A DNA stretch of 64,000 bases from Tubulanus polymorphus (lineage: Eukaryota > Animalia > Nemertea), in contig NC_134030.1 of NCBI RefSeq assembly GCF_964204645.1, positions 14,570,110-14,634,109 of the forward strand. The letters are read 5' to 3'. Of the stretch, positions 10,098 to 43,416 are shown in pieces. A program made the translations under genes and the position numbers. A model generated the notes under the pieces. That model was not told the origin of the DNA. It saw only the letters and a program-made list of their open reading frames with translations, and made no database searches. Each line of letters begins with the position of its first letter. Position 1 is the stretch's first letter.

Positions 10098-10772
10098 TTT
10101 GGTTTTGTCGCCCGCGACAATTCATTATTTTGGATTTATCGCCCGCGACAATTCATTATTTTGGTTTTATCGCCCGCGACAGTTCATTAATTTGGTTTTG
10201 TCACCCGCGACAAATCAATATTTTGGTTTTGTCGCCCACGACAATTCAATATTTTGGTTTTATCGCCCGCGACAATTCATTATTTTGGTTTTATCGCCCG
10301 CGACAATTCATTATTTTGGTTTTATCGCCCGCGACAATTTATTTTTTTTGTCGCGGTTTTATCGCCTGCGACAATTCAATATTTTGGTTTTATCGCCCAC
10401 GACAATTCATTATTTTGGTTTTATCGCCCGCGACAATTCATTAGTTTGGTTTTGTCGCCCGCGACAATTCAATATTTTGGTTTTGTCCCACGCGACAATT
10501 CAATATTTTGGTTTTATCGCCTGCGACAGTTCAATATTTTGGTTTTATCGCCAGCGACAATTCATTATTTTGGTTTTATCGCCCGCGACAATTCATTATT
10601 TTGGTTTCATCGCCTGCAACAATTCATTAGTTTGGTTTTGTCGCCCGCAACAATTCAATATTTTGGTTTTGTCGCCCGCGACAATTCATTATTTTGGTTT
10701 TGTCACCCGCGACAATTCATTATTTTGGTTTTATCGCCCGCGACAATTCATTATTTTGGTTTTATAGCCCGC
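10098..10772 (+). repeat. 31-bp satellite array (TTTTGGTTTTATCGCCCGCGACAATTCATTA)n
   Basis: About 21 tandem units, interrupted by the Polinton left terminus at 10773. Confidence 0.95.
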
Positions 10773-11263
10773 AGTAATAGGGAATATGTTGTTTCAGATC
10801 AAAGGTCGAACGGTCGAGCTCATTAAAAACAAAACATTAAATTTTGGTCGCTCCACTTCGCTACCGCTCCGCTCCGCGACCAATTGATTTATTTACAATA
10901 CACACATTCATATAATCAAATATATTCAAATAATAATAATTATTCTATTATTCAACTGAAATGTACACGGTTATGAAAATATATTATAGTTTTAAATTAC
11001 TTTTAATGTTTTGTTTTTAATGAACTCGACCATTCAACCTTTAACCTGAAACAACATATTCCCTATTACTCTTAAAATATTCATATATATGAATAAAATA
11101 TAAATGAATAACTTCTAAAATCAATTTTAATAAAAAATTTAGTATTAAAATGGAAGCAAATAAGTACTACTGTCCAACATGTAATATCAATGTAGATAAA
11201 TCCCAAAAAGCAAGACACAATAAAACTAAAACACATTTAGAGAATAAATTGAAACTAGAATAT
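10773..11263 (+). repeat. Left TIR with terminal palindrome
   Basis: 10844-11263 is the reverse complement of 29528-29946 (about ten differences). 10773-10840 is also an inverted copy of ~11002-11070. Confidence 0.92.
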
Positions 11264-11401
11264 TTACAGTTATATTCAGAACAGTTAACAAAGGCAAAGA
11301 AATTTATTGAATTATGGAATAATGATCCAAATAATGAACAATACGTTGAGGAATTTGATATCAAGGAATCTAAACAACTTATCAAAAGCAGCGAGGAATG
11401 A
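11150..11401 (+). CDS. Small zinc-finger protein starting inside the left TIR
   Basis: CPTC-x12-H-x5-H (C2H2/U1-type) finger. The first ~38 codons mirror the true N-terminus of pPolB. Confidence 0.65.
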   Translation: MEANKYYCPTCNINVDKSQKARHNKTKTHLENKLKLEYLQLYSEQLTKAKKFIELWNNDPNNEQYVEEFDIKESKQLIKSSEE

Positions 11402-11478
11402 AAAAGGATGACGTTGGTCGAAGAAATTGAAGAGGATTCTAAAATATTAACCAATTTAGTAAAAAATACATATAATAA

Positions 11479-12113
11479 ATGGAACCAGAACAACCACAAA
11501 TTATCAATATTACAAATAACACTGCTGGTGTTATAAATATATATTACAAGAAGTGTTCTAAATATGAATTAGATAAATCATTAACAGAATTTAGTAAGCG
11601 TAAGATTAGCAAAGATGGTTTTCAATATTGTTGTAAAACTTGCACTAAACTATATACCAAACAATATCGAGAAGATAATATAGAACATTATAATTATTAT
11701 ATGGCAGAATATATGAGAGAAAGATATCAAACAGATCTTAATTTTAGATTAAAACAATGCTTAAGGTCTAGATTAACACAATTATTCAACAAAGAAACGC
11801 ATTCAGAAACACTATCTAATCTATTGGGTTGTTCAGATGAATTTCTCAAATCATGGATTATATTTCAATTCGATGATAAAATGAATATAGATAATTATGG
11901 TGAATACTTTCATATTGATCACGTGTTGCCGATTTCTAAATTTAACATGAATGATGAATACAATAAAAAACTTATTTGGGGTTGGAGAAATTTAAAAACA
12001 TTAATAAATCTAATAAACTAGATGTACAGTTATATTTAGATCAACTGGATAAAGCAAAGACATTTGTTGAATTATGGAACTCAACACATAATGAAAAATA
12101 CGTTGAATGTTAA
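11479..12113 (+). pseudogene. HNH endonuclease (NCLDV/PLV endonuclease VII-like type), frameshifted near 12005
   Basis: N-terminal Cys cluster and FHIDHVLPISKF...WRNLKTL motif. The expected KSNK...VEC* tail continues in another frame to 12113. Confidence 0.75.
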
Positions 12114-13189
12114 ACGCTTAGAAAACCGGTTACTCTCGATCTATGTCAAACCGCCTGTATGTAATTGTATTAGGTTGTTTACAAAAGCATCTGTCGCACG
12201 TTATATTCAGTTGAATAGGGTGTATCTCATTTGAATATTGATCGAATGTGCTATTTCAGTTGAAAAGGATTTAATCAATTATATTACAAAGGAAGGAACA
12301 TCTGTTGCACCAGACAGTGTTTAGCTAGTGAATAACTGGCAGTTATAAACGCGCAGCACATAAGCATAGGAACGTATAGGATATTCTCTCTATAAACACA
12401 ATTTTAGGAGTTTACAGTTATAAATGTAAGTACTGTTTTTGTTGTTATTAAGGCGTTGGAAAACGTTAAACATGTAAAACTTATCCTGGTAAGATGCGCC
12501 ACAAAATGGTCATGTTTAAGTGTTGTAATTAATATTTTACAACTACAACTTCAAGTTAGTTTTATTCTACGCTAGATATTTATCTTTTAGATAACTAAAT
12601 GAAGACTATTGAATCAAGAAAGTGAAGAACGATGGACGTGGAATCAGAAATAATGGATATTTCAACTCATGAGAGTGTAGCAGTTTAGCCATACTGTATA
12701 GGCTTTCAATGCATTACGTTTGCCGGAATTTCAATTGCGTCATTAAGCTGTTGTTAATGACACACAGTGACAGATGTTGTATTATACTTTATTGATTCCT
12801 GCATTCCACACATACCTTACCGCTCCTCTCTGGAGCGGCTTGGAATGTGGAAATCGATAATGATTGTAGAATAAAATATATGTGTGTTTATGAAATAGTA
12901 TTTCCACCAGTCGTTTCTTTGAATTTATTTTCAGTTTTAGGATTTATTATCAAGAATCCGAAATGACTTATCTGGACAGTTATAGTTACTGCTCCTAATA
13001 GATAGACAATAGTAGTGAGATAATCTAAATCCTAATTTAAATAAAATATAATAAAAAAACAATAACTTCAACTAGCTAGTGAATTCTATTATATTTTTAA
13101 TACTTTCTTTTCAAAAAGAGAATACTTTATATTTTGAATAGATTCAAATAGAAAATCTTTCTATATATTTTTTTCGCTTTTTTCTCTAA

Positions 13190-13696
13190 TATAATAACAA
13201 TATAGATTATGAATACTATTTAACATGTAAACACCATCTTGAACTATTGATTGCTAGCGGAAAGTGTAGAGAGTTTTTAACTAAGACTATTACTTTTCAA
13301 GAATTAGATGCTATGAAACCCGATAAAGTAATAAAATATTTTAAGATTTATGAAGAAGCTAGATTAGCTAGAATAAATGATTCTATTTCAGATGGTATAG
13401 TCAAATGTTACTCTAAGTTATGTAACCAGTTAATACCAATTGATGATGAAAATAAATTATATAATGATTTGAAAAATGACTACTTAGTTATGACTGAATT
13501 ACAAAAATGGGTTGGTTATACTTCATTTCAATTAGGATCGGTTATGACATTAATTTCTACTGGTGTCATAACATTTTCGAATATCAAGCCTATGGAATAT
13601 AAATCAGGTAAGAACGAAACAGATGACGCTGTACTACATCCAAACGGTGAAACAGAAAATGAACCAGAACAAAAATTAACTAAAATAAATGAGTGA
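13190..13696 (+). pseudogene. Conserved Polinton hypothetical protein (no ATG in the open frame upstream of 13247)
   Basis: LIASGKCREFL...KIYEEARL...LIPIDDENKLYNDLKND resembles an ORF I recall from invertebrate Mavericks. The frame is open from 13190. Confidence 0.5.
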
Positions 13697-14057
13697 TGAT
13701 GTTAAGAAAAAGGTTAGATCCGAGAAACAAATTAAATGGGCAAGAGAATTAGGTAAAAGATCTTCAGAATTAAAAAAAGCTAAGAAAAAGAAATTAACTG
13801 ATATAAATGAATCACAGAAATTATCTGATATTGATTCAAATAATAATCCATCTAAATCTTCTAATGCTGGAAGTAATTATAAATTATATATTACAATTGG
13901 ATTAGTAACAGTTATTATATTCTCTGGTGTAATATATAAATCAAAATTCAAATCCGATGATAAAGATGATTCCAATGATAATAAACCTATCATACCAGAA
14001 AATAAGTCAAATCATAAAGTCATTGAAACTAAATCTAAATTATTATTAATGGATTAA
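13689..14057 (+). CDS. Basic protein with one transmembrane helix
   Basis: K/R-rich N-terminus (RSEKQIKWARELGKR) and hydrophobic LYITIGLVTVIIFSGVIY. TAAATG start. Confidence 0.6.
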   Translation: MSDDVKKKVRSEKQIKWARELGKRSSELKKAKKKKLTDINESQKLSDIDSNNNPSKSSNAGSNYKLYITIGLVTVIIFSGVIYKSKFKSDDKDDSNDNKPIIPENKSNHKVIETKSKLLLMD

Positions 14058-14063
14058 AATAGA

Positions 14064-15188
14064 ATGAAAAAAGAACAATATTTAAGAGATTTATATTATA
14101 ACCCAGAAAGTGAAGTATCATATTCTAACGTTTCAGAATTATGGAATAAAATTAAATCTGATAATGAAAATGGTGCCGTACGGCACCCACATGGTGGTAT
14201 AAAATATAGTGAATTAAAATCATGGTTACAAAATCAACCAACATATCAAATCCACAAGAAAATGGATAAAACTTATTTAACAAGGAAATTTATGGTTTCA
14301 TATATCGATCAACAGTGGCAAGCAGATTTAATTGACACGAAGAACTTAGAAGAATACAACAAAGGATATTTCTGGATATAAAATGTTATAGATATATTCA
14401 GTAGATACGCATGGTCAATTCCAATCAAAAATAAAACTGGAATAGAAGTAAAAAATGCTTTTAAATCAATATTTAAAGAAGCTATTCCAGATAAGATACA
14501 ATTTGATGAAGGTAAGGAATTTTATAACAAACATTTCAAAAAACTATTATCTGATAACGATGTAGACTATTTTTCAACACACTCAGATAAAAAAGCATCT
14601 ATTATAGAAAGATTTAATAAAACATTGAAAACTAGAATATGGAAATATTTTACTGCTAATGAAACATATAAATATATCGATGAGTCTATAAATATATTAG
14701 ATGATTTAGTGAAAGGTTATAATAATTCTAAACATAATTCTATAAATATGAAACCTATACAAGCTAGAAAAGAAGATAATTCAGAAATAGTTTGGAATAA
14801 TTTATATGGAGCGTTTGTTACACATGATTTCGGAGAACCTAAATTTAAAATAGGACAACACGTAAGAATATCTAAATATAGAAAAACCTTTTATAAAGTT
14901 TATTTTCCTAATTTTACAGAAGAAATATTTAAGATTAAAAAGATAATATTAACTAAGCCATTTGTTTATAAATTAGAAGATCTAAAAGATGAAGAAATAT
15001 TAGGTTATTTCTATGAACAAGAATTATCACTTGTACCAAATCCAGATGAAATAGAATACAAAATAGAAAAAGTATTGAAAACAAAAACTCTTAAAGGAAA
15101 AAAGTATTCTTTGGTGAAATATAAACGATACGATGATAAATTTAATGAATGGATTTTATCTAGTAAAATTAAAAGAATAAATGAATGA
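14064..15188 (+). pseudogene. Retroviral-type (RVE) DDE integrase with C-terminal chromo-like domain; one in-frame stop at 14379-14381
   Basis: Motifs WQADL, IDIFSRYAW, IQFDEGKEF and IERFNKTLK are all in one frame across the TAA. C-terminus YKIEKVLK...LVKYKRYDDKFNEWI. Confidence 0.92.
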
Positions 15189-15792
15189 AGATTTATTTAT
15201 ATTTGAACCGCATAATATGTTAGTTACTGGTGTAACAAACTGTGGTAAAACACATTTCATATTAGATTTGTTAGAAACTATTTATAAGAATCATTTTGAT
15301 AATATAATATTATTCTGTCCTACTTATGAAATGAATAAAACATATAAAAGGGATATAGTTAAGATGAAAAAGTTTATTATATTAGATCCTAAAACAGTAA
15401 AAGAAAATTTAAATAATTGTATAAAAATAGCAATTGATACTTATAAAGGATCAAATACATTATTCATTATAGATGATTGCGCTAATTTACATGATTCAAA
15501 AGTGAGAGAAAGTGAGTTATGTTATTTAGCTTTCTCTGGGAGACATTTTGGGATAACAACATGGGTTTTAAATCAAAAATATAATTCAATTGTTAAAGAC
15601 TTTAGGGAGAATATAAGATTTCTAGTTTTATTATATAACAAAGATAGAAAATCTATGCAACAATCATTGGAAGAAAATCAAAGTATACCTACTGAATTAC
15701 ATGATGAATATATGAATAAATTAAAGAATAATAAAGGTTCAAAATTATTACTGAGATTACAATTTCCCTATGAATATAAATTTATAAAATAA
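15181..15792 (+). CDS. A32/FtsK-like DNA packaging ATPase
   Basis: Walker A GVTNCGKT, Walker B LFIIDD, and SGRHFGIT...Q motif. Confidence 0.92.
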   Translation: MNEDLFIFEPHNMLVTGVTNCGKTHFILDLLETIYKNHFDNIILFCPTYEMNKTYKRDIVKMKKFIILDPKTVKENLNNCIKIAIDTYKGSNTLFIIDDCANLHDSKVRESELCYLAFSGRHFGITTWVLNQKYNSIVKDFRENIRFLVLLYNKDRKSMQQSLEENQSIPTELHDEYMNKLKNNKGSKLLLRLQFPYEYKFIK

Positions 15793-15823
15793 CTATTTAT
15801 AATTTGGAATATTATAGAAACTA

Positions 15824-16100
15824 ATTTATATATCTATGTACTAGACGTACGTAAGAAAGTAAGATTCTTACCTTTTTACTTTCTTGGCAAGAATCTTGGA
15901 TTCTTACGTACGTCTAGTCCATAGAAATATGAATTATTAAATGAAATATATAATAATGAATAAATTATATATTAAAACTATGTTTATAATTTATGTTTAT
16001 AATTTATGTTTATAATTTATGTTTATAATTTATATTTCTTGGTAAGGATTCTTGGGTTCTTACTTTCTTACACATACGTCTAGTGCATAGATATATAAAT
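15824..16100. terminator. Structured intergenic region at the convergence of the two gene blocks
   Basis: 18-bp inverted repeat at 15840-15857/15901-15918. Longer imperfect inverted repeat at ~15824-15863/16058-16100. 13-bp tandem repeat (TTATGTTTATAAT) at ~15979-16034. Function is inferred from position only. Confidence 0.4.
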
Positions 16101-16133
16101 ATTTTTATAGATATATAAATAGTTTTATAATAA

Positions 16134-17218
16134 TTATTCTAATTTTGTTTCTAATACATTTATTAAATCATCATTGTTTATATCAAATTCATCAGAAGTC
16201 TTTGGCATATTTATTAATTCTATTTCATCCTTCATTCTACGTTCATCATCGCTTAATCCAGCTTTTATTCTTAATTTTTCAAAGTAATCATTAGAATTAT
16301 CACCATCAAAATCAAATTCAAAATCATTTAATAAATTAAATAAATCTAGGTGTCCATTATACGCTAATTTATATATTTGGTCAGGATTATCTTCTGCATA
16401 AGCTAATAATTTATCAAAAAACAACTTAAAGAATATATGATATTGTTTAGCTTCAGGATTAAAAAATATTTGATATATTTCTTTGGTTTATCTAACAATG
16501 GTAACATACCCACTTTTTTATAAACATTAATTAGATGTAATTTAGATTTATAATGAGTAATTTTATCAACAGGTTCAATTTCTTTATTACAATAATCACA
16601 TATTAATTCTTTTTCATTTTCTATGTGCCCCTTAGATTTTTTATGTTTAGAAAAATTACTTTTAGAAATATCTAAATTACAAATGTTACAATGTTTTTTA
16701 GAATCATCAATTATTTCATTATCTGTTATATCATTATCATTAGTTTCGATTGGGTTAACATTATTTATTACATTATCTGTTATATTATCTATGGTATCAT
16801 TAGTTTCAATTGGGTTAACATTATCTTTTATATTACTTACTGATATATTATAATCATTATTATTCTTTTCTTTTTCTATATGTTTCTTTGATTTCTTATG
16901 TGATGCCCAATTTTTATATGATATATATTTCTTACATACATCACAATATTTTGGATTATAATAATCTTTTTTTGATTCAATATCATATGTAGAGGGTATA
17001 TTATAAGATGTAGATGCTGTTACATCTTCTATTTTATATTCAATATCATTCTTATCTTCTATTTTAGTTTCAATATTATCTTTTATTTTACTTATTCTAT
17101 ATTTGAATTGATTAAAGTAATCTCCAAAATACTTAATGTATTCATCATAAGGTAATATATAATATATATCTGTTATCATTTCACTTGGAGTTTGTATTTC
17201 ATATATTCCACCTTCCAT
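16134..17218 (-). pseudogene. Multi-zinc-finger protein, probably one frameshifted gene (16403-17218 + 16134-16424)
   Basis: Three CxxC...HxKSKxH fingers, and overlapping ORFs on the same strand. Confidence 0.6.
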
Positions 17219-17250
17219 TTATATAATAAATATTTGTTAAAGTTAAAATT

Positions 17251-18500
17251 TTAATACATAACACTATCTAATTGTGAATTTACAATATTTAATTGCGCGT
17301 CAGATATAATATAAATGTGCATTTTAAAATTTTTGATTCCTTTATTCTTTGTCATGAATAATTGTATTCCATCTTTAGTGTTCTGTAATTTTTTTCCAGA
17401 ACCATGTAATGAATTATCCTCTGTTGTTCTAAAATCTAACCATAATGCGTATTTATTACCGGTATAATAATCAATTTGATTAATGTTACAATTTTCAGAT
17501 GATTTTACTTTTTCATTCATAAAATGTTTTCTAATTTCTGGCCATTGATCTATCATTCTCATTCCTTGACAAAATATTTTATTTGCTATTCCTTCGATAG
17601 TTATTTCTACTTTTGTTATTTCAGGATTATAATAATTATCAATATTTATTGCGCCATTAGTATATGTTGCAATGGTAAAAAATATTAATGTACCTTTAAT
17701 AGATCTTCTTGGGAAGTTAATATTCTCATTAATTATTTCATCATTTGCATTAATAGTTACAGTTTTAAATTTATCAATATAATCATATAATAATGAAAAT
17801 CCTTGATTGTATTTAGTTTGAATTATACTTGAAATATTTTCATCAGTTACTGTATCATATTCTAAACATATATTCGATAATTTATAACCCATATCTTTAA
17901 CAACGCCAGATAATACAATTTCATTTACAGGAGCAAATGTTATTTCGAATATAACATCTTCTTGAATTGCGTATTTATATAAAGGTGCATTATTATTTAT
18001 CAATTCAAAGTCTAATGGAATTTTATATTTGCTTCCATAAATCTTTTTTATCAAATTATCTGTGGCACGAGTTACTATTGCGTCATTAGCTCCTGATCTT
18101 AATTTATTTTGGTTTTCTGATTGGATGCCTTGAAATATCATATTATTTCTATTTTCTTAACCATAAACCATAAATCTTTATAATGCATAAATAAATTATA
18201 ATCATCTAATGAGAAAACTGTTTCTGGACCAATCTTTATAGTTAATTTTTTAATCAAATATCTTCCAACCTTATCAACAACATAATTATTATTATTACCG
18301 ATTACTTTTATATCGGCCGATAAATAAATACTATTTGGAACATAAAAAGTATTTTGCGTTAATCGAGGGATTCTAACGTATAAAGTTTCATCGGGATTAA
18401 TATTTGAAGGGTTATGAGTAATTATACGATGTGATCTTTCTGCTTTAATAGCATTAGATATTCTATGATTCTTCGAAGGATTTATATAACTCCCACTCAT
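17251..18500 (-). pseudogene. Major capsid protein (double jelly-roll, hexon-like), frameshift at ~18160
   Basis: ITHNPSNINPDETLYVRIPRL, GRYLIKKLTIKI, ICLEYDTV and ALWLDFRTTEDNSLHGSG match Polinton MCP motifs. An apparent short duplication (TTTATGG twice) sits at the frame break. Confidence 0.85.
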
Positions 18501-18540
18501 TTATTTAACAAAAAAATTAATTATTTATTTTTAATCATGG

Positions 18541-20001
18541 TTACTTGATATTTTTTGATATCATATTCACTAACCCAAAAATAATAGCACTTACAACTGT
18601 AATTAAAAATAAAATAATATGTTCAGCAGCAAAGTTAATAATGTTTCCTGCAGATTTCAATATAAAACCAACAATTGATGCAATAACTCCTGGTAAAGCT
18701 GCAGCAGATTTTTTAGATAGTTCCCATAAATATTTTGCTAATTTCTTTAAACCATCTTTAACTTTATCTTGTATAGAATTATTACCTGGGGGTTTATCTG
18801 GTTTATTGGGAGTAGGAGTAGATTTCAAAGCATTTGATATAGCTAAACCAATTGTTGTAAATAACATAGTTACAGCTGTTAGAATTGAAAGAATTGTTAT
18901 TCCTTCAAACTTAAATAATAATTTTATTCTATCTTTCAATGATATTTTAGAATCTGGTTTTATTAGATATCTTTTAAAAACATCTTTTAATCTATTAATA
19001 TTATAATCATATGATTTTAATAATGATTTAATTTCTTCTTTTTGTAATTCTATGTTATATTCTAAATCATCTTTTTCTTTTTCTAAACGTAATTCTTTTT
19101 GCCTATATTCTATTTCATCAATTACTTGATGATCTAAATCAGACTTTAATTGTTCTATTTCTTTATTTTTATCAGTTAATTCTTTTTCTAAAGTTCTAAT
19201 TTTAAAATCTCTTATACTTTTATCATGCGCAATTTCATCAGATGCAAGTCTTATACTAATAATTTCTCTAATTGCTTTATCAGAAAATATATATAAATCT
19301 TCTAATTCTTGATCTGTTGCATCAAGTAATCCCTTCGGTAAAAGTTTTTCAGTTTGAACTTTATTTGATTTAAGTTTACTAGTTTTGGAAGTTTTATTCT
19401 GTTCAGAAGTTGTTTCTGTTTCTGGATTATCTTTGATTGTTTCAAATAATTCATTAATTCTTTGTTTAAATACTCTTTCATTTTTAATAATTTCTTCTTG
19501 TGTTACATCTTCTATTTCATTACTATTTCTTATTATTTTAATTCTAGATAGTAATGAGTCAGACTTAAGCAAAGTTGATTCTGCTAATATTTTGTTTTGT
19601 TTTTTATAAGAGATATCAATACAATAATCATCTTTCAAACGATAATAATATTCACCATCTAAAAACTTTAATTCTTGTACTAAAAGTCTAGCGCCTCTGG
19701 CATTGATATTATATCCAGATTTTTCAAATATAGGTTTGAAATTATAAATATATTCATTATATTCTAAATTTTGTTTTACTAAATCTGGATTTTCATTTTC
19801 AGGATTTATTCTCGATCTAGTTCTTCTATCAAATTCATCTGTTGATTGACCTTTAGAACCACTATCTGCTAAATTAGAATTATATGCTGATTCATCATCA
19901 TTATCAATATTAGTTTCTACATCATTATAATCATCATCAATATATCCTTCATTAGTATTTCCCATTTCTCCCATTTCATAATCTCCACCTTCTACATCCA
20001 T
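18541..20001 (-). CDS. Coiled-coil protein with C-terminal hydrophobic helices (adintovirus 'gasdermin-X'-like membrane-active protein)
   Basis: Intact 486-aa ORF. SLKDRIKLLFKFEGITILSILTA...AAALPGVIASIVGFILKSAG...AEH resembles the recalled family. The family name is from memory. Confidence 0.6.
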   Translation of the reverse strand: MDVEGGDYEMGEMGNTNEGYIDDDYNDVETNIDNDDESAYNSNLADSGSKGQSTDEFDRRTRSRINPENENPDLVKQNLEYNEYIYNFKPIFEKSGYNINARGARLLVQELKFLDGEYYYRLKDDYCIDISYKKQNKILAESTLLKSDSLLSRIKIIRNSNEIEDVTQEEIIKNERVFKQRINELFETIKDNPETETTSEQNKTSKTSKLKSNKVQTEKLLPKGLLDATDQELEDLYIFSDKAIREIISIRLASDEIAHDKSIRDFKIRTLEKELTDKNKEIEQLKSDLDHQVIDEIEYRQKELRLEKEKDDLEYNIELQKEEIKSLLKSYDYNINRLKDVFKRYLIKPDSKISLKDRIKLLFKFEGITILSILTAVTMLFTTIGLAISNALKSTPTPNKPDKPPGNNSIQDKVKDGLKKLAKYLWELSKKSAAALPGVIASIVGFILKSAGNIINFAAEHIILFLITVVSAIIFGLVNMISKNIK

Positions 20002-20023
20002 TTACATAATAAAAAAATTAAAA

Positions 20024-22941
20024 TTAAAAATATAATATTCCTCCGATTACAATTCCTATACAAGTTATAGCTAATTTAGTATTTTCATGGGATTTATTAT
20101 CATTATCAGTTTTAATTATATCATGTTGAATAATATCAGTTTTTATATTTTCTGATGTATTATAATCTTTTATTTTAGAATCATTATTTAATTTAATATT
20201 CTTAGTTTTAGTTTCAGTTGATTGAATATGTTTTTTATTTTTTTCACCTTCCATTAATTTTGGGGCAGTAATTATCTTTTTATTTATATCATTCAATCCA
20301 AATGAATTATTTATTGTTGCAGTTTTTAGCTCCGCTGTGACCGAAGGTCAGCGGAGCTGATTGGTTAGGGGGTTCGTCGTCGTCGTCCGTCCGTCCGTCC
20401 GTCCGGTGTTCGGTGTCCGGCGTCAACTTTTTCTTTATATCCCTACTAGTCCTACAGTTCTGATGGGATCTTGATGAAACTTGGTATGAATGATCTATGG
20501 GGGAGTGCCTACAAAAGTACAGAGCCATAATTTTGATTTTGCATAAATTATGCAAATTAGGGCTATTTTTAGATTTTCACTAAAATCGCTACTCCTCCAT
20601 CGATTTTCAGCGGATTTCAATCAAACTTGGTATGAATGATCTATGGGGGAGTGCCTACAAAAGTACAGAGCCATATTTTTGATTTTGCATAAATTATGCA
20701 AATTAGGGCTATTTTTAGATTTTCACTTAAATCGCTACTTCTACTTCAGTTTTCAGTAGATATCAACCAAACTTGGTACGAATGATGTATGGGGGAGTGC
20801 CTACAAAAGTATAGAGCCATACTTTTGATTTTGCATAAATTATGCAAATTAGGGCTATTTTTAGATTTTCACTTAAATTGCTACTTCTACTCCAATTTTC
20901 AGTAGATTTCAACCAAACTTCATATGAATGTCCTATTGGGGAGTGCCTACAAAAGTATAGAGCCATATTTTTGATTTTGCATAAATTATGCAAATTAGGC
21001 CTTTTTTAGATTTTCCTTTCAACCGCTACTCCTCCAATTTTCAGCGGATTTCAAACTTAGTATGAATGTTTTTATAGGGGATTGTCTAAACCAGTATAGA
21101 GCCATATTCTAGATTATGCATAAATTTTGCAAATTAGGGATAATTTTTTTAGATTTTCACTTAAATCGCTACACCTTCTTCAGTTTTAATCAAATTTGAA
21201 TTAAACTTTTTATGAATGATCTATGGGATGATGCCTACATAAGTATAGAGGATCTTTTGCAAATTAGTTCTATTTATAGATTTATCTTGTTTAGCTCCGC
21301 TGTGACCTCTAATGGGTTAGGGGGTGAGCCGTTGTCGTGCGTTTGTTCGTTCGTTAGTGCGTCTGTCAACTTTTTCTTCAAATCGCTACTAGTCCTACAG
21401 TTTTAATCGGATCAATTCCAAATTTGGTATGAATGTTCTATGGACCAAGGCCTACAAAGTTAGAGAGCGATTTTTTATTTGTCCCCTAGGGGGCGCCCCT
21501 GGGGGGTAGAGTTTCTATTTCTTCAAATTGCTACTTGTCCTACAGTTTTAATCAGATCAATTCTAAATTTGGTGTGAACGTTCTATGGACCACGGACTAT
21601 GAAGTTACAGGGCCATTTTTTTCATTTGTCCACCAGGGGGCACCCCTGGGGGTGGAGTTTCTATTTCCTCAAATTGCTACAGCTATTAGTCCTACAGTTT
21701 GAATCAGATCAAGTCCAAATTTGGTATGAATATTCTATGGACCAATACCTACATAGTCAAGAGCCCTTTTTGGATTTGGCCAAAAGGGGGCACTCCTAGA
21801 TATGCAGCTTCCATTTCTTCAAATCACACAGCGGAGCTATTTGAGCCGATAGGCTCCTTGTAATTAGATTATTATAACCAATTATGTTTCCCATCTTTAA
21901 TACAAGATCATTAGAAATAATAAATAGATTAGGGCCTATTCAATAATTTAATCTTATATGTGATTTATCTAAATAATTTTGATATCTTACAATGTTTTCT
22001 GGAATCGATCTATTTTTATCATTATGAATAGAATCTTCAAATAAAACTTTAAATTGTTTCTGCGCATCGAATGAAGTGTTATCATTTCCAATTATTGGGG
22101 ATCTTGTTTCAACCTGTGATCCTAGAATACATATCAAATAAGTTCTAATAGATTGATTTATTCTTTGTATTCCGGCTTTAGTAAAACCTTCATTATTTTC
22201 TAAAATGAAATAAACCCAACCATTATTGTTTTCTTGTTTTAAATTATCATAAAATGTCGGTAATTTATTGAAATTTAATGTTTCTAAATCCTTAGTTTCT
22301 ATTTTACCATAACCTAATTTATTACTATAGATATTATACAAACTATTAGATGGTATGGGAAGTGCACAATATTCTGCAATCTTTTTAGGGCAAGGAAGTG
22401 ATCTTATTGTTCCAATTTTTGTTCTAAAATCAGAATTATTTATATCTATATTAAATTCACTACAATTTTTATAAAACTTTGATAAATTAATATTATTATC
22501 TAATTCTTTGAAATACCTAGATCCTGGTAAAGCACACTCTAATTCATTTAATATTATTCTGATTTGAAAGTATGTATGAAATCTAAATAAACTTTGAATT
22601 AATTTATATTTAGAATTATTCAAATGATCATTCCAACTAATTCCACAACCTGTTGTTGCACAATAAACAGCAAAATTTAATTGGTTCTGCCAATACTTCA
22701 TATTAGATTTTAATAACCATTGTTTTTCATCTTTCAATTTTTTAAAATTAATTAAATATACATGAAATATATTTTCCATCTTTGCATTAAAATTATTAGT
22801 TTCAGTAACATAAATTTCTAAATTAGTTAATGAATCTAAAACTTCATTTCTATATGTAATATCTTTATCAAAATCTATTGCTGGAATATTATATTTAATT
22901 GATTTATTATATTGGAAAGCTTTTGGAAAACTATCTGCCAT
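20024..22941 (-). pseudogene. Conserved Polinton protein with C-terminal membrane anchor, split by a HINE insertion and a TGA at 21940-21942
   Basis: WQNQLNFAVYCATTGCGIS and FRFHTYFQIR motifs. Removing ~20323-21861 restores GYNNLIKTATINNSFGLNDINKK in frame with ORF 20024-20296. Confidence 0.75.
20323..21861 (+). mobile_element. Helentron-associated (HINE/DINE-1-like) non-autonomous element inserted in the Polinton
   Basis: Starts TTTTAGCTCCGCTG..CAGCGGAGCT stem-loop, then (GTC)/(GTCC) microsatellite and ~146-bp internal tandem repeats. Ends with subterminal CAGCGGAGCTA and a GAGCC..GGCTC hairpin then CTTGT. Inserted in a T run. Confidence 0.8.
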
Positions 22942-22957
22942 TTATATAATTAAAAAA

Positions 22958-23392
22958 TTAATAATTTATTAATTCTTTTAATAATTTATCTTGTTCTTCA
23001 ACTGTTATATAGCCATTTAAACTTATTATATAATCTAGTGTATTATTTAATTTATTAATTTCTTTTATATTAGTTTTAATTTTTTCTTTATTACTTTTCA
23101 TATTTAATTTTGAACTTATACCGGTTAAAACACTTGATGATAATCCTAATACACCAATTGATATAGCTAAAGGTGTTAATGGGCTGAATATTGGTAGAAA
23201 TGTTATTACAGAACTAATTGTAACCGAACCACTTATAATCAAATAATATATAATTTTACTTTTTAAATATTTTTTCTTTTTTATCTTTAAGTCACTTTCA
23301 AATTCTAATATTTGTTTTTCTAAATATATTTTTAATTTAGTTTTATTTATATCATGAGGAATAATATCAATATTATCAACTTTATCTTCCAT
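22958..23392 (-). CDS. Two-TM/coiled-coil Polinton protein
   Basis: Intact ORF with TAAATG start and two hydrophobic segments. Confidence 0.6.
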   Translation of the reverse strand: MEDKVDNIDIIPHDINKTKLKIYLEKQILEFESDLKIKKKKYLKSKIIYYLIISGSVTISSVITFLPIFSPLTPLAISIGVLGLSSSVLTGISSKLNMKSNKEKIKTNIKEINKLNNTLDYIISLNGYITVEEQDKLLKELINY

Positions 23393-23412
23393 TTATTTAG
23401 AAAAAAGAATTA

Positions 23413-23839
23413 CTAATTAGTAAACTTATAAGCAACAAATATAACAATAACAGTTCCGCCTAAAATCCAAATTATTTCATATTTCTGTTGTTCTTTACTT
23501 GGGGTATAATAATCTGATAATTTAGGTTTGTATAGATGTAATTTTTCTTTATCGGTTACCGCGTTATATAAACTCATTGCATCATCAACTGATTGAAAAT
23601 CTCTATGTGAAATCTTCTGATCATATAATTCTTTATTGATGTAATCCATATAGTTTTGTCTTTTTTCTCTATATTCTTCTGCAGCTTTATTATATTTCTC
23701 TAACGCTAAGTTATGTCTTCTTTGTTCTCCTAATGAACTATTTTTATCAATATGTTTAAATAAATAAACACCACCAGTAAATGCCAGTAAAAGCGTTAAC
23801 AATTGCCGATCCTATAATAGTTATAATTGCAGAAGCCAT
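23413..23839 (-). pseudogene. Conserved Polinton membrane/coiled-coil protein, frameshift at ~23790
   Basis: True start MASAIITIIGSAIVNA at 23839 (TAAATG) shifts into LAFTGG...EQRRHNLALEKY...C-terminal TM. Confidence 0.7.
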
Positions 23840-23863
23840 TTATTTAGTAAAATAATTACGCAT

Positions 23864-24085
23864 TTATATGGGAGGAATATATTTTTGTTTTTCCAAATAA
23901 TCAATTGTTAAATTAGATAAAGTAACTGCTAATGTTAATTTTAAAATATCATTTATATCAAATCTATCAACATTAACACTTCCCATTTTGAATACTTTTT
24001 TTAATACCATTGAATAACCAACAGTTCCAACTGATAGTAATGCGCTATTATATAATCCAGTTATTATCCACTTATTCTCACTCAT
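23864..24085 (-). CDS. Small amphipathic/hydrophobic Polinton protein (candidate membrane-lytic peptide)
   Basis: 73 aa; VGYSMVLKKVFKM and DYLEKQKYIP resemble a recurrent small adintovirus ORF. Confidence 0.6.
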   Translation of the reverse strand: MSENKWIITGLYNSALLSVGTVGYSMVLKKVFKMGSVNVDRFDINDILKLTLAVTLSNLTIDYLEKQKYIPPI

Positions 24086-24427
24086 TTATTTATCAAAAAA
24101 ATTACTATCATCAAAATATTTAGTTATGTTAGTGATGATTAATTCAACATTTATTTCATTACTACTTTGATGATTATCATATATTTTGGATAATATGTTT
24201 TTGATATCATCAATAATTCCATCTTCATTTAATTCATAATATTCTAAAGGTGATTTAATTAAATCAATTACTTTTTCTGTATTATAATTTTCTTTATCAA
24301 TCATTGACGCATTGTTAAATGATTTACTTTTTATATCAGTAATTACATCATTTAGTTTAATTCTCATTTCTTTACCATGTTTAAAATCAAACCCAAAACA
24401 TATACTCGGTCCAACAGTTATATTCAT
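24086..24427 (-). CDS. Hypothetical protein
   Basis: Intact ORF within the gene block, TAAATG start. Confidence 0.55.
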   Translation of the reverse strand: MNITVGPSICFGFDFKHGKEMRIKLNDVITDIKSKSFNNASMIDKENYNTEKVIDLIKSPLEYYELNEDGIIDDIKNILSKIYDNHQSSNEINVELIITNITKYFDDSNFFDK

Positions 24428-24444
24428 TTATATAGTGAAAAAAA

Positions 24445-25206
24445 TTACTCTCTACATCTTATAACTAATTCATAAATTACAGGGAAATTATTTAAATCAA
24501 TTAAGTATCCATTATGATTTCTAATTTCTAATCTAAAATTATTAAAACGAGGAATGCATGGTTTGAAATCACATTCTGTTAAATTATAATTTATTTGCGT
24601 TCCATATTCTTTAACATTCTTCAATGGTAAAATGTTTAGTAAACCAGAATTACAAGTTATATCTTTAGTTGCTTCGAATGTTTTTGTAGGATCGATTAAA
24701 TTGCAATAAATATAAAAATGTGTGTAAGGTATTAAGTTTGGTGTAGTAGCGTCAATATTTGTAAAAGATCTATCTGGAAGAATTCCTAACAGTTTAGCTA
24801 TAGGTTTTTTTACCATAAATTTATGTTTTTCACTATTAGACAACCTTATCTTTATTCTATCAGATCTCTCACTTTTTAAAAATCTAATACTAAACCCAGA
24901 ACTACTACCTAATTTGTGCCAGGCTTTTCTATTAATTTCTTGTGCCAATGTATCTAAATTATATAACCCTGGTTTTAAATATATATAGACCCATTCATTT
25001 TTATTTTTATTAAAAATTAAAAAAGCTCTATGTTCAATAGTTTTATTCGATATATTGTAAAAAGAATTACATAAACTTATATTAACTAATTTAAAATCTA
25101 CACAATTCTTAAATTCTCTATCTAATTGAACTATTAAATTATGTGATTTATAATTTGTAAGCCTTCTAGAATCTACAAATATTCTGTATTCTTTTAATTC
25201 TACCAT
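24445..25206 (-). CDS. Minor capsid protein (penton, single jelly-roll)
   Basis: NSFYNIS, LKPGLYNL, AKLLGI, FYIYCNLID, LLNILP and LEIRNHNGYLIDLNN motifs. Confidence 0.85.
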   Translation of the reverse strand: MVELKEYRIFVDSRRLTNYKSHNLIVQLDREFKNCVDFKLVNISLCNSFYNISNKTIEHRAFLIFNKNKNEWVYIYLKPGLYNLDTLAQEINRKAWHKLGSSSGFSIRFLKSERSDRIKIRLSNSEKHKFMVKKPIAKLLGILPDRSFTNIDATTPNLIPYTHFYIYCNLIDPTKTFEATKDITCNSGLLNILPLKNVKEYGTQINYNLTECDFKPCIPRFNNFRLEIRNHNGYLIDLNNFPVIYELVIRCRE

Positions 25207-25223
25207 TTATTTTACATATTTTC

Positions 25224-25577
25224 TCATTCGAAATCTATTTCATGGTGCCCTTTTTCATTCTTACCTTTGTATACGAAATAGAAATCACCAGAACATAATT
25301 CTTCTAAATCTTCACTTGATAATCTATGAAATCTATCAGGCAAATATGTTCTGAATTTATATGTATTTCTTTTTAATCCTTCATATTCTAAGTGTATAAC
25401 TAATTTATCTCCATAGTTATTAGTAACTGTATCAATATTTGTAATTAGATATTTCTTATGGATTGTTAATTCTGTTAACTTTTTGAATTTATAATCTACA
25501 GATTTTACATTTGTTATATCTTTATTTCTATCTAGAAATAATTTGTTGTTCTCACTGTGTGCTTGTTTACTCTCCAT
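25224..25577 (-). CDS. Hypothetical beta-rich protein (possible OB-fold ssDNA-binding protein)
   Basis: FKKLTEL...YLITNIDTVTNNYGDKLVIHLE...YLPDRF pattern; lies directly downstream of pPolB. Confidence 0.45.
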   Translation of the reverse strand: MESKQAHSENNKLFLDRNKDITNVKSVDYKFKKLTELTIHKKYLITNIDTVTNNYGDKLVIHLEYEGLKRNTYKFRTYLPDRFHRLSSEDLEELCSGDFYFVYKGKNEKGHHEIDFE

Positions 25578-25606
25578 TTTAATAACATATTTTTATTAAA
25601 ATTTGA

Positions 25607-28600
25607 TTAACACGTTAGAATTCTTTTCATTATCTCGATCTCTTTTGTTTCTTCTCTTTTAAATTTTAAGTATTCATCTAAATTACAACCATAAGCAACT
25701 GTATGAATTCCATCATCCCGAATATATCTTTTATCATCAAATGGGTTTAGACTTATCTTTTCAATTTCTTCAATAAACATTTCATGATCTTCAGATCTTA
25801 AACATCTCATCTTATGTTTGCTAACTTCTTCATTGAATATACAATTGATGTAATCTTTGAAATGAATATTCTTTTCTACTACATTTTTGGTTATTCCTTT
25901 TAACTTTTTAGCTTCATGTTCTTTAGTTTTATATGAATACATTTTAGATCGAATACCTATGAATTCAATCATTTCTTCACCACCTAATTCATCTTTGAAT
26001 TTACCGGGAACTTTTTTATTATCATTGCTAAACAATTCATGATCTTGAGGATAGTTACTAAAATCAAAATGATGTTTTAATGTTTTTAAATCATCAGTTA
26101 TGTTATCAGTTTTTATCTTTAATATGTAACTGTCAGTATCAAAATATAATATTTCTATATGTTTTTCTCCAAAAAGTGGTTGTAATACATTATAATAGAA
26201 TTCATACATTAGTAATTTTGATAATTCTAAAACTGAAGCGCCAACATAGATTGGTTTATTAAATTTCATTGATGTTCTTCTCACCTTAACTGCGGCTAAA
26301 TTTTCATCAAATATTCTGTTACCAATGAACTTAGGATATGATTGTAAATGCCTTATCCTTTTACCATTACTGACTAACTCAATATCATTTCTATTTCTAA
26401 TATTTTCACAAGTCTTACCATAGAATGCATTATTCATTAACTTGAAGAAATCTTTCTCGAAATCAGTTTTAGCTTCAGTTCTCTGTTTGGGGTTAAAATC
26501 TATATATTTTTCTAACCACTTAGATTGACTAAACGAAATATATCTATGTACTTTTTTTAGAACCATTCCTTGATTCAAATAAAACTTTAACATTCTATAA
26601 TGTACTACATAATTATATTTATCTTCTTGAGTTACCATTAACTTTTCTGTATGAATATGATTTTCGGGTTTAATTCTTTTTTGGTAATTTGATAATTCTT
26701 CATGAGTTACAGTTTTATGTTCTGGACAGTAAGCTAGATTTCTAGATTTAAATTTAATATGTTCAGGATATTCTAAATCTACAACAAAGAAGTAACCAGT
26801 ATCTGAATCATCTGCAATATCTAGGATTCTTTTCTTCCAATCAAATTTATCATTTTTTTCATTCTGTAAAACTTCAGTTAATTCAAATACTCCATAAGGT
26901 TGTGGTTCCATCATTGCCCAACCATACAAATTATTTGCATCTATATATAATAACTTATATCCAGGGTTATCATGTACATTGAAATATCTATCACCTAATA
27001 CACCTGAAACACCTCCTCTTATAGATTTTTCAAATAATAGTAATTGATCTATATTTGTTAACAAATCCATTTTTATATTTGTAAATTTTAATCCACAATC
27101 CCATGTTAAACCTGGTGATGAATAACAATGACAAGGATCAATGTTAAAATATTTTAGGTTTACATCTCTAAACCTTTCGAATATATCGGTTAATAATAAT
27201 ACATCTGATTTTAAATATAAATATACTAATTGCCCATGATTTTCTATTTTGAAATGATTCCAAATATTCAATGTTCTATTATAGACTTCATCTTTAACAT
27301 ATTCATTTTTTAATTCATCATAGAATTGTTCTTTTAATAATTCAGTTATATTGAAATCATTATGTGATTTATAAAATGAATATGGAATTTCGCCTTTATA
27401 TCTCATTAATTGAAAATCATCATTATTTGGGTAGTGTTGCTTTAATATTTTTAATTCATCATCAACTAATGATTTTGATAAGTTATCTAATGAACTATTT
27501 AAAAATCTATATGAATCTATAAATCTTAAACACCCAAATTGGAATGATATATAATTCTCAGATGTTTTAGCTAACATTCTAAATTTATAAGTTGGTATTT
27601 TATCTTTTGATCTATTTGAATTTAATCTTTCTATTTCATTATTAATTTCTTCTATTTTATGACATAACTGTTTGATAAATAAATGTGCATCATATCCTGA
27701 TAGATTATGAAATATAACTGGTACAAAGTTAATTTTCTTAGCTTGTAAGTTACAATTCTCATGCGCAGCGCCTCTAAACTTTCCATTCAAATGATCATGG
27801 TCTCTTACTTTTTTATCTTTATAATTAAATATCTTTTCACAATAATAACATTTATCTGCAAACGCAAATGCTTCTTTATCTTCTTCTGTCATTATAATTT
27901 CTATATTTGTATTCAATAATTTACTAAATCTTATTTCATATTCAATTAATAAGTCACAAAAATGATTGATAACATTTTCATTTCTGTAATGATAATATTC
28001 ACTTTCAATTAGTTCTGGATAATCAGATTTAATATATAACCCGAAAGCTGCAGCTGATTGATGAATCTTTTTAATAGTATTTGTTTTTGGTGGTTCATCT
28101 GAAAAATCATTTTCATTAGAATTTAATTTCCTTCTTTTATAATATATTTCTTTTCTATCTTGATCAGTTAATTCTTTATTTAATGATTCAAAATCTCCAT
28201 ATATAACAAATGGTACTTTATTTTTGTAATCATATTTTTTGAATTCTAATATTTTATCTTTTTCATTTGGTAAAACTAATTTACAATAATCATGATTTTC
28301 ACATAATTGTTTATGATTTAATAATGCACTTTCATTACTGAATCTATGTAAACATTTTCTACATAGATATATTTTACGAGTGTGATCATTTTCTGATTTA
28401 AAAAATAAATCGATTTGTTTAATCCACATATAATGATTCTCATAATATAGTATATCTATAACATCATTTGAATCATAATCTTTTGATAGATATAAAGGTT
28501 CTAATGTATAATGTTTTATATTGTTACCTTTTGTATTTGGTAATTTGATTAAATCAAATACATTTATTCTTAAATTATTATCTCTTTCTATCTTTGGGAC

Positions 28601-29640
28601 GTTTTTAATTCTAACAGGATACTTATCTATCTTATAATTATTTTCAAATGGTTTATAATGAGTTAATCTACAAATATTATAAGTTGCAGGATGTAAACAA
28701 CTTATTATAGTCCATAGTAAACATTTATCATCAAAATTGTGTACATTTATTGCAGCATTAGTTTTAAATGGTAGTTTGATATAACTCGATGCTTCAATAT
28801 CTGGTTCTTTATAATATGATACATTATTTTCATCTATTGGTTTTGATTTAGTTAACTTATTATATTTTGTGTTATAAACATGTAAAGTCATAAATATTAT
28901 CTCATCAAATGTTAAACCAGATCCTTCAAAATATTTCTCTTCTATTTTAGTTTTTACTTCATTATAACATTTATCTAATTTATCATCTATATGTTGTTTA
29001 GATATAATATGTTGTGAATGAGAATTTATATTATATATTGGTTTATCTTCAGATTTTATGAATTTAACTTTAGAAGATATACTTATTTTAGGATATTCAA
29101 CAGCAGTTATTATTTTTATTATATCTTTCATATTTTCTAAATGTTTTTTATTTTCTTCTAATGTTTTTCCTTTATGAAATTTAAACTCGATAGCTGCTGG
29201 ACCAATATCACTTTTAAATGCTTCGGTTATCTCTATATCTTTTTTATTATCTAATGAATTAATATATTTTCTTACATCTTCCATGTATGGTCTTTTATTG
29301 TTTAATTTATTTTTTATGCTTTTAATTGTCTTCTGTTTCTTATTGTTATCATTATCAAAATAATCTTCACCTAAAATATCATTATTCTTATTTCTAATAT
29401 GACTTATAGATTTTAAATGTTCTTTAAAATATCTTTTATCACTGAATGATTGATTACATGTATTACATTTATATGTTTCTTTTTCATTCTTTAATTCTTC
29501 TAATTTAGTTTCTAATATATCATCTTTATATTCTAGTTTCAATTTATTCTCTAAATGTATTTAGTTTTATTGTGTCTTGCTTTTTGGGATTTATCTATAT
29601 TGATATTACATGTTGGACAGTAGTACTTATTTGCTTCCAT
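25607..29640 (-). CDS. polB: Protein-primed-type family B DNA polymerase (pPolB); true ATG at 29640 in the TIR, cut off by a 1-bp deletion near 29560
   Basis: Exonuclease motifs YGDFES, FHNLSGYD and YLKSDV. Polymerase motifs YIDANNLYGWAM, KLMNNAFYGKT and YFDTDS. Embedded EndoVII-like CYYC..VRDHDH..RGAAHENCN, and N-terminal zinc fingers. Confidence 0.96.
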
Positions 29641-29988
29641 TTTAATACTAAATGTTTTATTAAAAGTGATTTTAGAAGTTATTCATTTATATTTCATTCA
29701 TATATATGAATATTTTAAGAGTAACAGGGAATATGTTGTTTCAGGGTAAAGGTTGAATGGTCGAGTTCATTAAAAACAAAACATTAAAAGTAATTTAAAA
29801 CTATAATATATTTTCATAACCGTGTACATTTCAGTTGAATAATAGAACAATTATTATCATTTGAATATATTTGATTATATGAATGTGTGTATTGTAAATA
29901 AATCAATTGGTCGCGGAGCGGAGCGGTAGCGAAGTGGAGCGACCAATTGATTTATTTACAATACACACATTCATATAATCAAATATAT
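29528..29988 (-). repeat. Right TIR with perfect 50-bp-arm hairpin (29865-29914 / 29939-29988, 24-nt loop)
   Basis: Reverse-complement match to the left TIR plus internal self-complementarity. Confidence 0.92.
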
Positions 29989-42658: not shown

Positions 42659-43416
42659 ATAAATTAGATAGTGTTTCTGAATGCGTTTCTTTGTTGAATA
42701 ATTGTGTTAATCTAGATCTTAAGCATTGTTTCAATCTAAAATTAATATCTCTTTGATATCTTAGTCTCATATATTCTGCCATATAATAATTATAATGTTC
42801 TATAATATCTTCTCGATATTGTTTGGTATATAGTTTAGTGCAAGTTTTACAGCAATATTGAAAACCATCTTTGCTAATCTTACGCTTATTAAATTCTGTT
42901 ATAGTTAATTCACATTTAGAACACTTCTTGTAGTATATATTTATGACGCCAGTGTTATTTGTAATATTGATAGTTTGTGGTTGTTCTGATTCCATTTATT
43001 ATACATATTTTTTTACTAAATTGATTTTAGAAGTTCAATGATTTATAGCATGTATTATTTCAATCACACTTTACTAACACTTTTAATGTTTAAAAATCTA
43101 ACTCATACAAATATGAAGATTGAAATAATGTTGTAAATATATCTATGTATCTATTCTATAAGAGCTTACACTTTTATATTGAATAATCTGTCAATTTAAA
43201 TGTTATTCATTTACATGAATATTTTAAGAGCAATAGGGATAATAGGCTATCATGTTAAAGGTTGAAGGGGCGAGTGAGTAAAAAATGAAAATAATAATAA
43301 TTTACAGTTGAATTAGGAGTGTGCGCGACTAATTCAACTGTAAATTATTATTATTTTCATTTTTTACGAGCTCGACCCTTTGACCTTTGATCTGAAAGCC
43401 TATTATCCCTATTACT
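42659..43416 (-). mobile_element. Terminal fragment of a second, related Polinton (palindromic terminus plus 5' half of the HNH gene)
   Basis: 42659-42995 encodes MESEQPQ..., near-identical to the protein at 11479. Ends CCCTATTACT (5'-AGTAATAGGG). 43229-43416 is a 188-bp imperfect palindrome. Confidence 0.88.

Follow-up and report, generated by a model that had tools for sequence, protein, structure and literature searches.

The window, a 64,000-nucleotide stretch of the nemertean Tubulanus polymorphus (assembly GCF_964204645.1, contig NC_134030.1, positions 14,570,110 to 14,634,109), contains a Polinton-type element at 10773..29988, a decayed copy of ~19 kb from a multicopy family in this species. 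Almost every gene of the element begins with a signal of ~20 bases, an A/T tract from -18 to -12 followed by W-A-TAAATG, and the signal recurs throughout a clade of relatives. Judging from the sequence, we are moderately confident that it serves as a compact promoter for the RNA polymerase of a cytoplasmic large DNA virus during co-infection; the clade would then be virophage-like. The clade-wide motif is real. No report of it in integrase-bearing Polintons was found in the literature, with supplements and subscription papers outside the search; "promoter" does not occur in the main text of PMC11296320, PMC11161782, PMC8502044, PMC11131425, 10.64898/2026.10.13.758929 and 10.64898/2026.06.19.733378; and co-mentions of TAAATG and polinton, in the portions of the literature accessible, concern virophages and aphid RNA (1-2 occurrences each).

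The start-site signal and its conservation

The first-pass annotation of the window had listed exact TAAATG at 12 starts of the element (11479, 13689, 15181, 17218, 18500, 20001, 22941, 23392, 23839, 24085, 24427, and 25206) and at 42995, TAAAATG at 11150, 25577, and 29640, and TAGAATG at the integrase start 14064. Every one of these contexts was verified. The "second element" to which 42995 was assigned does carry the TAAATG, but it is a terminal fragment only (~43416 to 42650). The starts are not all independent, as 11150 and 29640 lie in the two copies of the terminal inverted repeat (TIR) and 42995 belongs to a 91%-identical homologue of the 11479 gene. Enrichment over other ATGs, the test that the annotation had proposed, is clear: TAAATG is present at 12/16 element starts vs 22/406 non-start sense ATGs, with 12/262 antisense ATGs and 52/1811 ATGs outside the element as further background. 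The binomial probability of TAA before the ATG is 2e-10 against the TAA frequency in upstream DNA (62/720), and 4e-5 at an assumed 25%. Upstream T runs, also described in the annotation, hold in part: T6 or longer lies within -25..-6 at 6/16 starts vs 4/406 other ATGs, but at every second TAAATG start the tract is A-rich or mixed instead. The annotation had been right that only 24085 has an in-frame abutting stop; the other tandem spacers on the minus strand measure 16-40 nt.

A fixed register, absent from that annotation, is what the TAAATG starts have in common. T occupies -12 in 12/12 TAAATG starts vs 41/114 non-start TAAATG sites, and A occupies -18 in 10/12 vs 36/114. The two positions are the edges of an A/T tract at fixed distance from the start, and the tract itself is T-rich, A-rich, or A-then-T. 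Two conventional signals were considered and rejected: a splice acceptor, for which a branch point and T tract are present with no AG ahead of the ATG, and an upstream poly(A) signal, since AATAAA is found at just 8/12 window starts and is missing from several divergent pairs.

The search with the capsid gave 641 homologues, a 46-row alignment and 25 retrieved metagenome loci (numbered with the prefix L). The window element and L001-L014 fall into one 28-row clade in a quick tree of the 46 rows (SH-aLRT, a likelihood-ratio branch support, 93), with capsids ~50-75% identical, 20-44% GC, and shuffled gene order. TAAATG stands at 50/59 automatically called starts (L001-L014, L017) and at 51/57 hand-curated starts of relatives, a set that leaves out 5'-open or internal starts and near-duplicates (three L003 genes, all L014). 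The register is kept as well: T(-12) is found in 47/50 relatives' starts vs 41/114 non-start TAAATG sites, while 33/50 vs 6/114 have an AnTm hexamer that begins at -18. Over 63 starts, 29 have T5 or longer, 15 have A5 or longer and 19 neither, with T(-12) at 95%. The motif stays with each gene across the differing gene orders, and the N-termini agree among orthologues.

Three observations indicate what kind of signal this is. High-GC relatives retain it (at 44% GC, 3/4 starts vs 1/175 background; at 40% GC, 3/4 vs 3/117). Divergent genes, with ATG gaps of 19, 28, 28, 30, and 72 nt, have TAAATG on each side, and the 28-30-nt spacers hold a single central A/T tract in register with both genes. 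Among the curated exceptions, 5/6 keep TAAAT or TAAAAT displaced 2-4 nt upstream of the ATG, which fits a DNA initiator and not an in-frame stop. Taken together, these observations rule out composition and in-frame stop-restart as the principal cause and indicate that the signal is a DNA element tied to the start.

A split between TAAAATG at replication genes and TAAATG at structural genes, as proposed in the annotation, does not survive the comparison, as the 25577 orthologue in L001 and the integrases of L001 and L003 use TAAATG. More widely, TAAATG is found at integrase, HNH, kinase, and 25577 orthologues, and the tract type (T vs A) swaps among orthologues. A conserved early/late split was likewise rejected, as the tract classes do not sort by early vs late genes. 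The kinase, at L001:10340-10981 in the closest long relative, matches the deoxynucleoside kinase family of Pfam (dNK, E 2e-31) and starts at a T-tract and TAAATG.

Outside the clade the arrangement is looser, with TAAA and 0-3 nt before the ATG in L019, L177, and L178 and at one start of L020; L018 and L179, which are GC-rich and degraded, have no TAAA-by-ATG signal. Scans of IMG/VR with the element's ATPase and capsid gave no relative, and GTDB gave none for the close group and three for the distant group. We also noticed 57% capsid homologues (P0009, P0122-P0129) in several records labelled Bartonella, assemblies that are probably contaminated with eukaryotic DNA.

Large DNA viruses and gene ends

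The vaccinia late promoter consists of a T-rich core, 5-7 bp, and TAAAT(G/A) (PMC5294985), and TAAAT(G/A) at the start codon, the mark of poxvirus late promoters, is present here. For the T-tract genes, the vaccinia late layout is the closest described match, in a comparison made from publications and not scored on poxvirus DNA. Vaccinia intermediate and late promoters have in common with the element an A/T-rich core, a 5-7-nt spacer, and a TAAAT(G) initiator at the start codon; the element differs in using one class of motif for nearly its whole gene set, with A(-18)/T(-12) held constant and a tract of either polarity. The likeness to a poxvirus late promoter that the annotation had drawn is sustained for the fixed-geometry signal, which at the T-tract genes matches the vaccinia layout, but not for any restriction to post-replicative genes.

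Viral contigs were scanned in IMG/VR with the element's T-tract motif, giving 36 loci. Several are iridovirus-like by their capsid, L1R/F9L, and DUF5850 genes, and none of those inspected or annotated is poxvirus-like, in a collection that may lack poxviruses. The whole record was searched for one of five iridovirus-like matches, and its count did not exceed the control (49 vs 67). In 35 loci around two iridovirus-like genes (L142-L176), TAAATG stands at 97/298 starts, nearly always as AATAAATG, and in 80 loci around iridovirus-related capsids at 130/762. T(-12) accompanies 41 of the 97, near background, and 65 of the 130 in the capsid panel. The iridovirus-like contigs thus have the initiator in common with the element, not the whole motif. 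In the invertebrate-iridovirus-like genes of L142-L176, AATAAATG makes up 33% of starts and TAAA at -5 another 22%, a likely late initiator. The uncultured iridovirus-related L062-L141 share a conserved pre-capsid motif (a T/A tract with TCTTG, followed after 5-7 nt by W-ATAAA just ahead of the ATG), of which none was seen in the accessible text of two reviews.

A scan of IMG/VR for two-way spacers gave 113 loci, 15 of them (14 distinct) with open reading frames (ORFs) on both sides and gaps of 27-32 nt (6 at 28). Several lie in giant-virus metagenome-assembled genomes (MAGs); the scan pattern selects such spacers and thus speaks for their existence, not their frequency. In L187, L194, L203, L222, L231, L232, L249, and other giant-virus-like contigs, the divergent TAAATG starts are separated by 27-32 nt of nearly palindromic sequence. 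With TAAATG at 97/298 iridovirus-like starts and such spacers in giant-virus MAGs, the annotation's specifically pox-like helper is not upheld. As far as sequence goes, the layout suggests a polymerase of Nucleocytoviricota type but not its family, and the helper may be pox-like, iridovirus-like, or of another Nucleocytoviricota lineage.

Gene ends have a regular feature of their own. Hairpins were found at 4/5 independent convergent junctions with a spacer, with RNA fold z scores of -10.7 in the window, -6.9/-8.7 in L002/L003, -7.8 in L010, and -7.2 in L177, and the hairpin sequences are unrelated among L002/L003, L010, and L177. In L177, a contig of a distant Polinton that had been assigned to a bacterial MAG, the hairpin stem at 1590-1645 is closed by TAATG/CATTA, a closing pair described for the 3' hairpins of an invertebrate iridovirus (IIV-6; PMC5923455). 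The junction of the convergent blocks in the window (15782..16133) has a hairpin at 15822-15936, with a related inverted copy past the other block's stop, and is a candidate 3'-end signal.

Explanations for the signal

The mechanism that we favour would run as follows. Integrated copies would be poor templates for the host RNA polymerase II (Pol II) and silent until helper infection. A large DNA virus would then provide the polymerase and the factors that bind the -18/-12 tract, and initiation would occur within the TAAA adjoining the ATG, giving mRNAs that are nearly leaderless or carry 5'-oligo(A); one central A/T tract could serve both genes of a 28-30-nt divergent spacer, and the hairpins would form the RNA 3' ends. 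Thereafter the element's own polymerase would replicate it, and its own capsid would package it. A single motif may suffice for nearly all genes because the parasite joins a late programme that is already running. No RNA polymerase was matched by Pfam or PHROGs in the window element or L001, and no VLTF gene was matched in either; the element thus appears, like virophages, to have no RNA polymerase of its own. The system would work like a virophage promoter system. The virophage-like agent that the annotation had suggested remains the best explanation of the clade-wide signal, but the pox identity of its helper is not established.

In protist virophages, promoter mimicry is accepted as the sign that they depend on a helper. 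Mavirus and its endogenous relatives, the EMALEs, of Cafeteria (PMC8547959) are integrating elements with a protein-primed family B polymerase (pPolB) and rve, and they share an upstream motif that is taken as the helper's late promoter; they differ in their protist host, TCTA motif, known helper (CroV), and virophage-type capsid, whereas the motif in the window is fused to the ATG. Gezel-14T (PgVV) likewise shares a promoter motif, the early motif of its helper, and depends on a giant virus for transcription (10.1101/2022.07.28.501842), but its AAAATTGA motif stands at 5 genes and it has a tyrosine recombinase, TVpol, and an algal host. Polinton-like viruses (PLVs) associated with entomopoxviruses (PMC11296320) are Polinton-like animal elements tied to a cytoplasmic large DNA virus; unlike the window element, they encode a cysteine protease, are without rve, and have highly divergent capsids.

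Several observations weigh against the virophage-like reading. The layout is common to several large DNA virus groups, but the exact motif had no match to any sampled virus, and in the sister branch L015/L016 TAAATG stands at 0/7 starts. At the convergent junction of L005 no hairpin forms (z 0.3), and in two more convergent pairs the genes overlap. AATAAA in the coding strand, compared with synonymous shuffling of 83 coding sequences (58.7 kb) and with no nuclear-gene control, is not avoided overall (212 vs 219 expected), a result that favours the reading, but is mildly low in one subset (22 vs 30, z -2.0). TTTTTNT is the poxvirus early terminator. TTTTT[ACG]T occurs 14 times vs 39 expected, double the depletion of TTTTT[ACG][ACG], at 62 vs 85 (p 0.008, one of five contrasts, on related genes), with the four mirror and A-based contrasts not depleted likewise, which hints at a T5NT-type terminator. 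The depletion extends to structural genes, however, which pox late transcription does not require, and A and T homopolymers are avoided as such (A7 44 vs 125, T6 12 vs 39), much more strongly than in iridovirus-like contigs, an avoidance that may reflect a slippage-prone polymerase. Transcription has been reported with no helper named for coral polintoviruses, in heat-stressed and control colonies (PMC11131425), and for an adintovirus in cavefish (PMC8502044). Finally, a conserved protein of the element (442 aa in L001) could be regulatory; it has no Pfam, PHROG, or Atlas match, and its single-sequence model (predicted local distance difference test, pLDDT, 32) is unusable.

That the helper is a poxvirus or a close relative is a sub-case of the reading we favour, and in our judgement unlikely. 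The T7 tract, 6-7 nt, and TAAATG at 18500, 20001, 24085, and 24427 match the vaccinia late layout (PMC5294985), TAAATG is fused to the ATG at 85% of starts here vs 33% in iridovirus-like and 17% in other sampled contigs, and the TTTTTNT depletion is direction-specific. An aquatic poxvirus has TAAATG at many conserved genes (PMC4542343), and PLVs occur in entomopoxvirus occlusion bodies (PMC11296320). The link of these PLVs to a poxvirus, on which the annotation had drawn for support, stands as context, but "promoter", "motif", and TAAAT are absent from the main text of that source. Set against a pox helper are the IMG/VR motif scan, with its iridovirus-like and no poxvirus-like loci among those inspected and the same caveat on the collection, the two-way spacers in giant-virus MAGs, the A- and T-tract classes without early/late sorting, and the terminal hairpins, which fit iridovirus and yeast-element 3' ends (PMC5923455, PMC6211774). 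Also unlikely is that the signal serves host Pol II as a small core promoter rich in A and T, perhaps aided by an activator that the element encodes, the viral likeness being convergent or inherited. A/T tracts can bind the TATA-binding protein, the family is nuclear-integrated and multicopy, and the 442-aa gene is conserved without family assignment. The expression of related coral polintoviruses with no named helper (PMC11131425) agrees with this. It does not agree that 14.3 kb of coding strand hold 63 AATAAA, not depleted, that convergent ends show hairpins and not a poly(A) signal pattern, and that TATAAA, where found, is at -6, too near for the TATA box of that gene. Given the geometry of Pol II core promoters, divergent ATGs 19-30 nt apart also leave scant room for two cores and leaders.

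A polymerase donated by a cytoplasmic linear plasmid-like or larger sibling element, as pGKL1 relies on pGKL2 in yeast, seems to us quite improbable. The yeast virus-like elements have pPolB, TIRs, AT richness, a TAAAN initiator with slippage that adds 5' poly(A), and transcripts that end at stem-loops (PMC6211774), and VLTF3 is present in some coral polintoviruses (PMC11131425). The yeast pair differs in having no capsid or integrase and another upstream motif (the upstream conserved sequence, UCS), and pGKL2 encodes a polymerase, whereas neither an RNA polymerase nor a VLTF gene was found in the window element or L001. We know of no such plasmid-like element in animals. A translational role, with TAA abutting the ATG for stop-restart on polycistronic RNA and T runs as upstream terminators, has little probability: genes lie 0-40 nt apart, the upstream stop is often the left tract edge, and G at +4 in 70% of the 63 starts indicates selection on translation context, but motif and tract are kept in divergent pairs, where no gene of that strand lies upstream, TAAAT is out of frame in 5/6 exceptions, and the T(-12) distance is fixed. 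That the pattern is an artefact, produced by AT richness and by taking as start whichever ATG comes first behind a stop, would suit an element of 22-29% GC and yet is almost beyond belief, with a background of 5-9%, the motif kept at 40-44% GC, orthologue N-termini in agreement, and extra fixed positions at -12 and -18.

Beyond the virophage-like reading itself, a broader proposal is possible, if on balance doubtful: that the protease-less, animal-endogenous Polintons of this widespread clade are germline-inherited virophages, nuclear-silent and wired to the late transcription apparatus of large DNA viruses of animals, pox-like or iridovirus-like, that they act as an inducible antiviral defence, and that the motif is the trace of a helper virus yet to be discovered. 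According to a 2026 framework preprint, no virions have been seen. A 20-base motif allows animal Polintons to be sorted into helper-dependent and autonomous ones by sequence only, provides a search image for the helper, and makes a cheap direct test of helper dependence feasible.

Organization of the element and its flanks

The element is an island of 22-29% GC inside repeat-rich flanks of 35-39% GC. Read depth over it is mostly 300-900 (run X7, 1.9 Gb of reads), with most reads 90-99% alike, and because of this depth the family would count tens of copies or more for any genome >100 Mb. The window copy has interruptions in the integrase, capsid, and polymerase genes and in four others. With Maverick/Polinton elements (Polintoviricetes) of protease-less type it shares an rve integrase, an A32 ATPase, a capsid of predicted double jelly-roll fold, AG-starting TIRs, ~19 kb length, and multicopy state, besides the putative family B polymerase; it is distinguished from them by the palindromic TIRs, the clade-wide start-site motif, and a cysteine protease not being detected. 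No cysteine protease was matched among the ORFs of the window or L001, so the adenain-type protease of group 1 Maverick-Polinton/adintovirus was not found.

The left TIR (10773..11263, plus strand) starts with 5'-AGTAATAGGG at 10773 and includes 420 nt that are 97.6% identical to 29528-29946. It is an imperfect palindrome around a 24-nt loop, with an internal gap in the outer arm (DNA fold -68 kcal/mol). The right TIR (29528..29988, minus strand) has a 50-bp perfect palindrome (29865-29988) whose loop is shared with the left TIR; the right end is without its outermost part in this copy, and strand switches at it are seen in reads from other copies. The terminal fragment of the related element (42650..43416, minus strand) has the AGTAATAGGG end, a palindrome with 90-bp arms, and an A-tract with TAAATG (42995) before a truncated HNH-like ORF. 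AGT termini at 10773 and 43416 provide the 5'-AG TIR end of Polinton type. Covalently closed telomeres of pox type were ruled out, as the palindromes sit within the AGT-ended TIR. In all three TIRs (10773-11070, 29720-29988, 43230-43416), long imperfect palindromes let the outer end pair with an inner copy; mismatches near the TIR end are at similar places in the two different elements, and reads show that other copies share the palindrome. Such a structure could act in fold-back priming or as a panhandle origin.

On the plus strand, a zinc-finger ORF (11150..11401) starts within the TIR with TAAAATG and has the same N-terminus as the polymerase (zf-U1 E 0.001, below cut-off). A putative A-tract promoter with TAAATG (11479) precedes an HNH-like nuclease ORF (11461..12021), whose relative in L003 matches HNH weakly (E 0.006). 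The following ~1.1 kb without an intact ORF (12022-13190) has read coverage at family depth, and so belongs to the element. Next are a conserved helical protein with a C-terminal hydrophobic stretch (13190..13696), broken here in its 5' part and starting at a T-tract and TAAATG in relatives, and a small membrane protein (13671..14057) with a putative promoter and TAAATG at 13689. The rve integrase with chromodomain (14064..15188) starts at 14064 without TAAATG, and a stop at 14379-14381 interrupts its frame. Its identification as the integrase of Maverick/Polinton elements is by profile, with Pfam rve (E 2e-5) and Chromo (E 4e-4) both under the curated cut-off and a PHROG transposase match (E 2e-6) in L003. 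A predicted A32-type packaging ATPase (15163..15792; Pfam Pox_A32 E 6e-12), also characteristic of Maverick/Polinton, follows a putative promoter with TAAATG at 15181.

On the minus strand, a multi-zinc-finger protein in two frames (16134..17236) has a putative promoter and TAAATG at 17218. The double jelly-roll capsid protein (17251..18518), with 641 homologues, starts at 18500 behind a T7 tract and TAAATG. The capsid model, made from the L001 orthologue (73% identical; pLDDT 85), matches iridovirus, PBCV-1, and virophage capsids in Foldseek (E to 1e-15), which supports the predicted fold expected of a Maverick/Polinton; a named homologue from the capsid search is a Mactra antiquata protein (38% identity). 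Beyond it lie a 486-aa coiled-coil/membrane protein (18541..20019; T7 tract and TAAATG at 20001) and the conserved protein that measures 442 aa in L001 (20024..22959; T6 tract and TAAATG at 22941), into which a 146-nt repeat array is inserted (20350-21870). Four small genes (22958..24445), each with a T-rich tract and TAAATG (23392, 23839, 24085, 24427), include three with hydrophobic stretches, and 23839 is in two frames. For a 206-aa protein, the Atlas gave a single lead (0.81). A probable minor capsid protein (24445..25224; weak DUF5901 match, E 0.006) has an A-tract and TAAATG at 25206, and a 117-aa ORF (25224..25595) has an A-tract and TAAAATG at 25577, where the L001 orthologue starts with TAAATG. 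The predicted family B DNA polymerase (25607..29658), which also has an endonuclease VII domain, starts in the TIR at 29640 with TAAAATG and is broken near 29560. Its motifs were recognized by eye in the translation of a 1317-codon frame, which has an Endonuclease_7 match (E 3e-6) and no Pfam polB or PDB sequence match.

Rfam gave 0 matches. In the flanks, a broken ORF pair (35459-37471) had no Pfam match at 1e-4 and by its motif looks like a Mutator-like element (MULE) transposase. It overlaps an inverted duplication of 6.1 kb (36361-42450 / 57910-64000), 100% identical, which is a recent duplication or an assembly artefact. A 31-nt satellite (10003-10772, 43811-44396, 48061-50920) adjoins both element ends.

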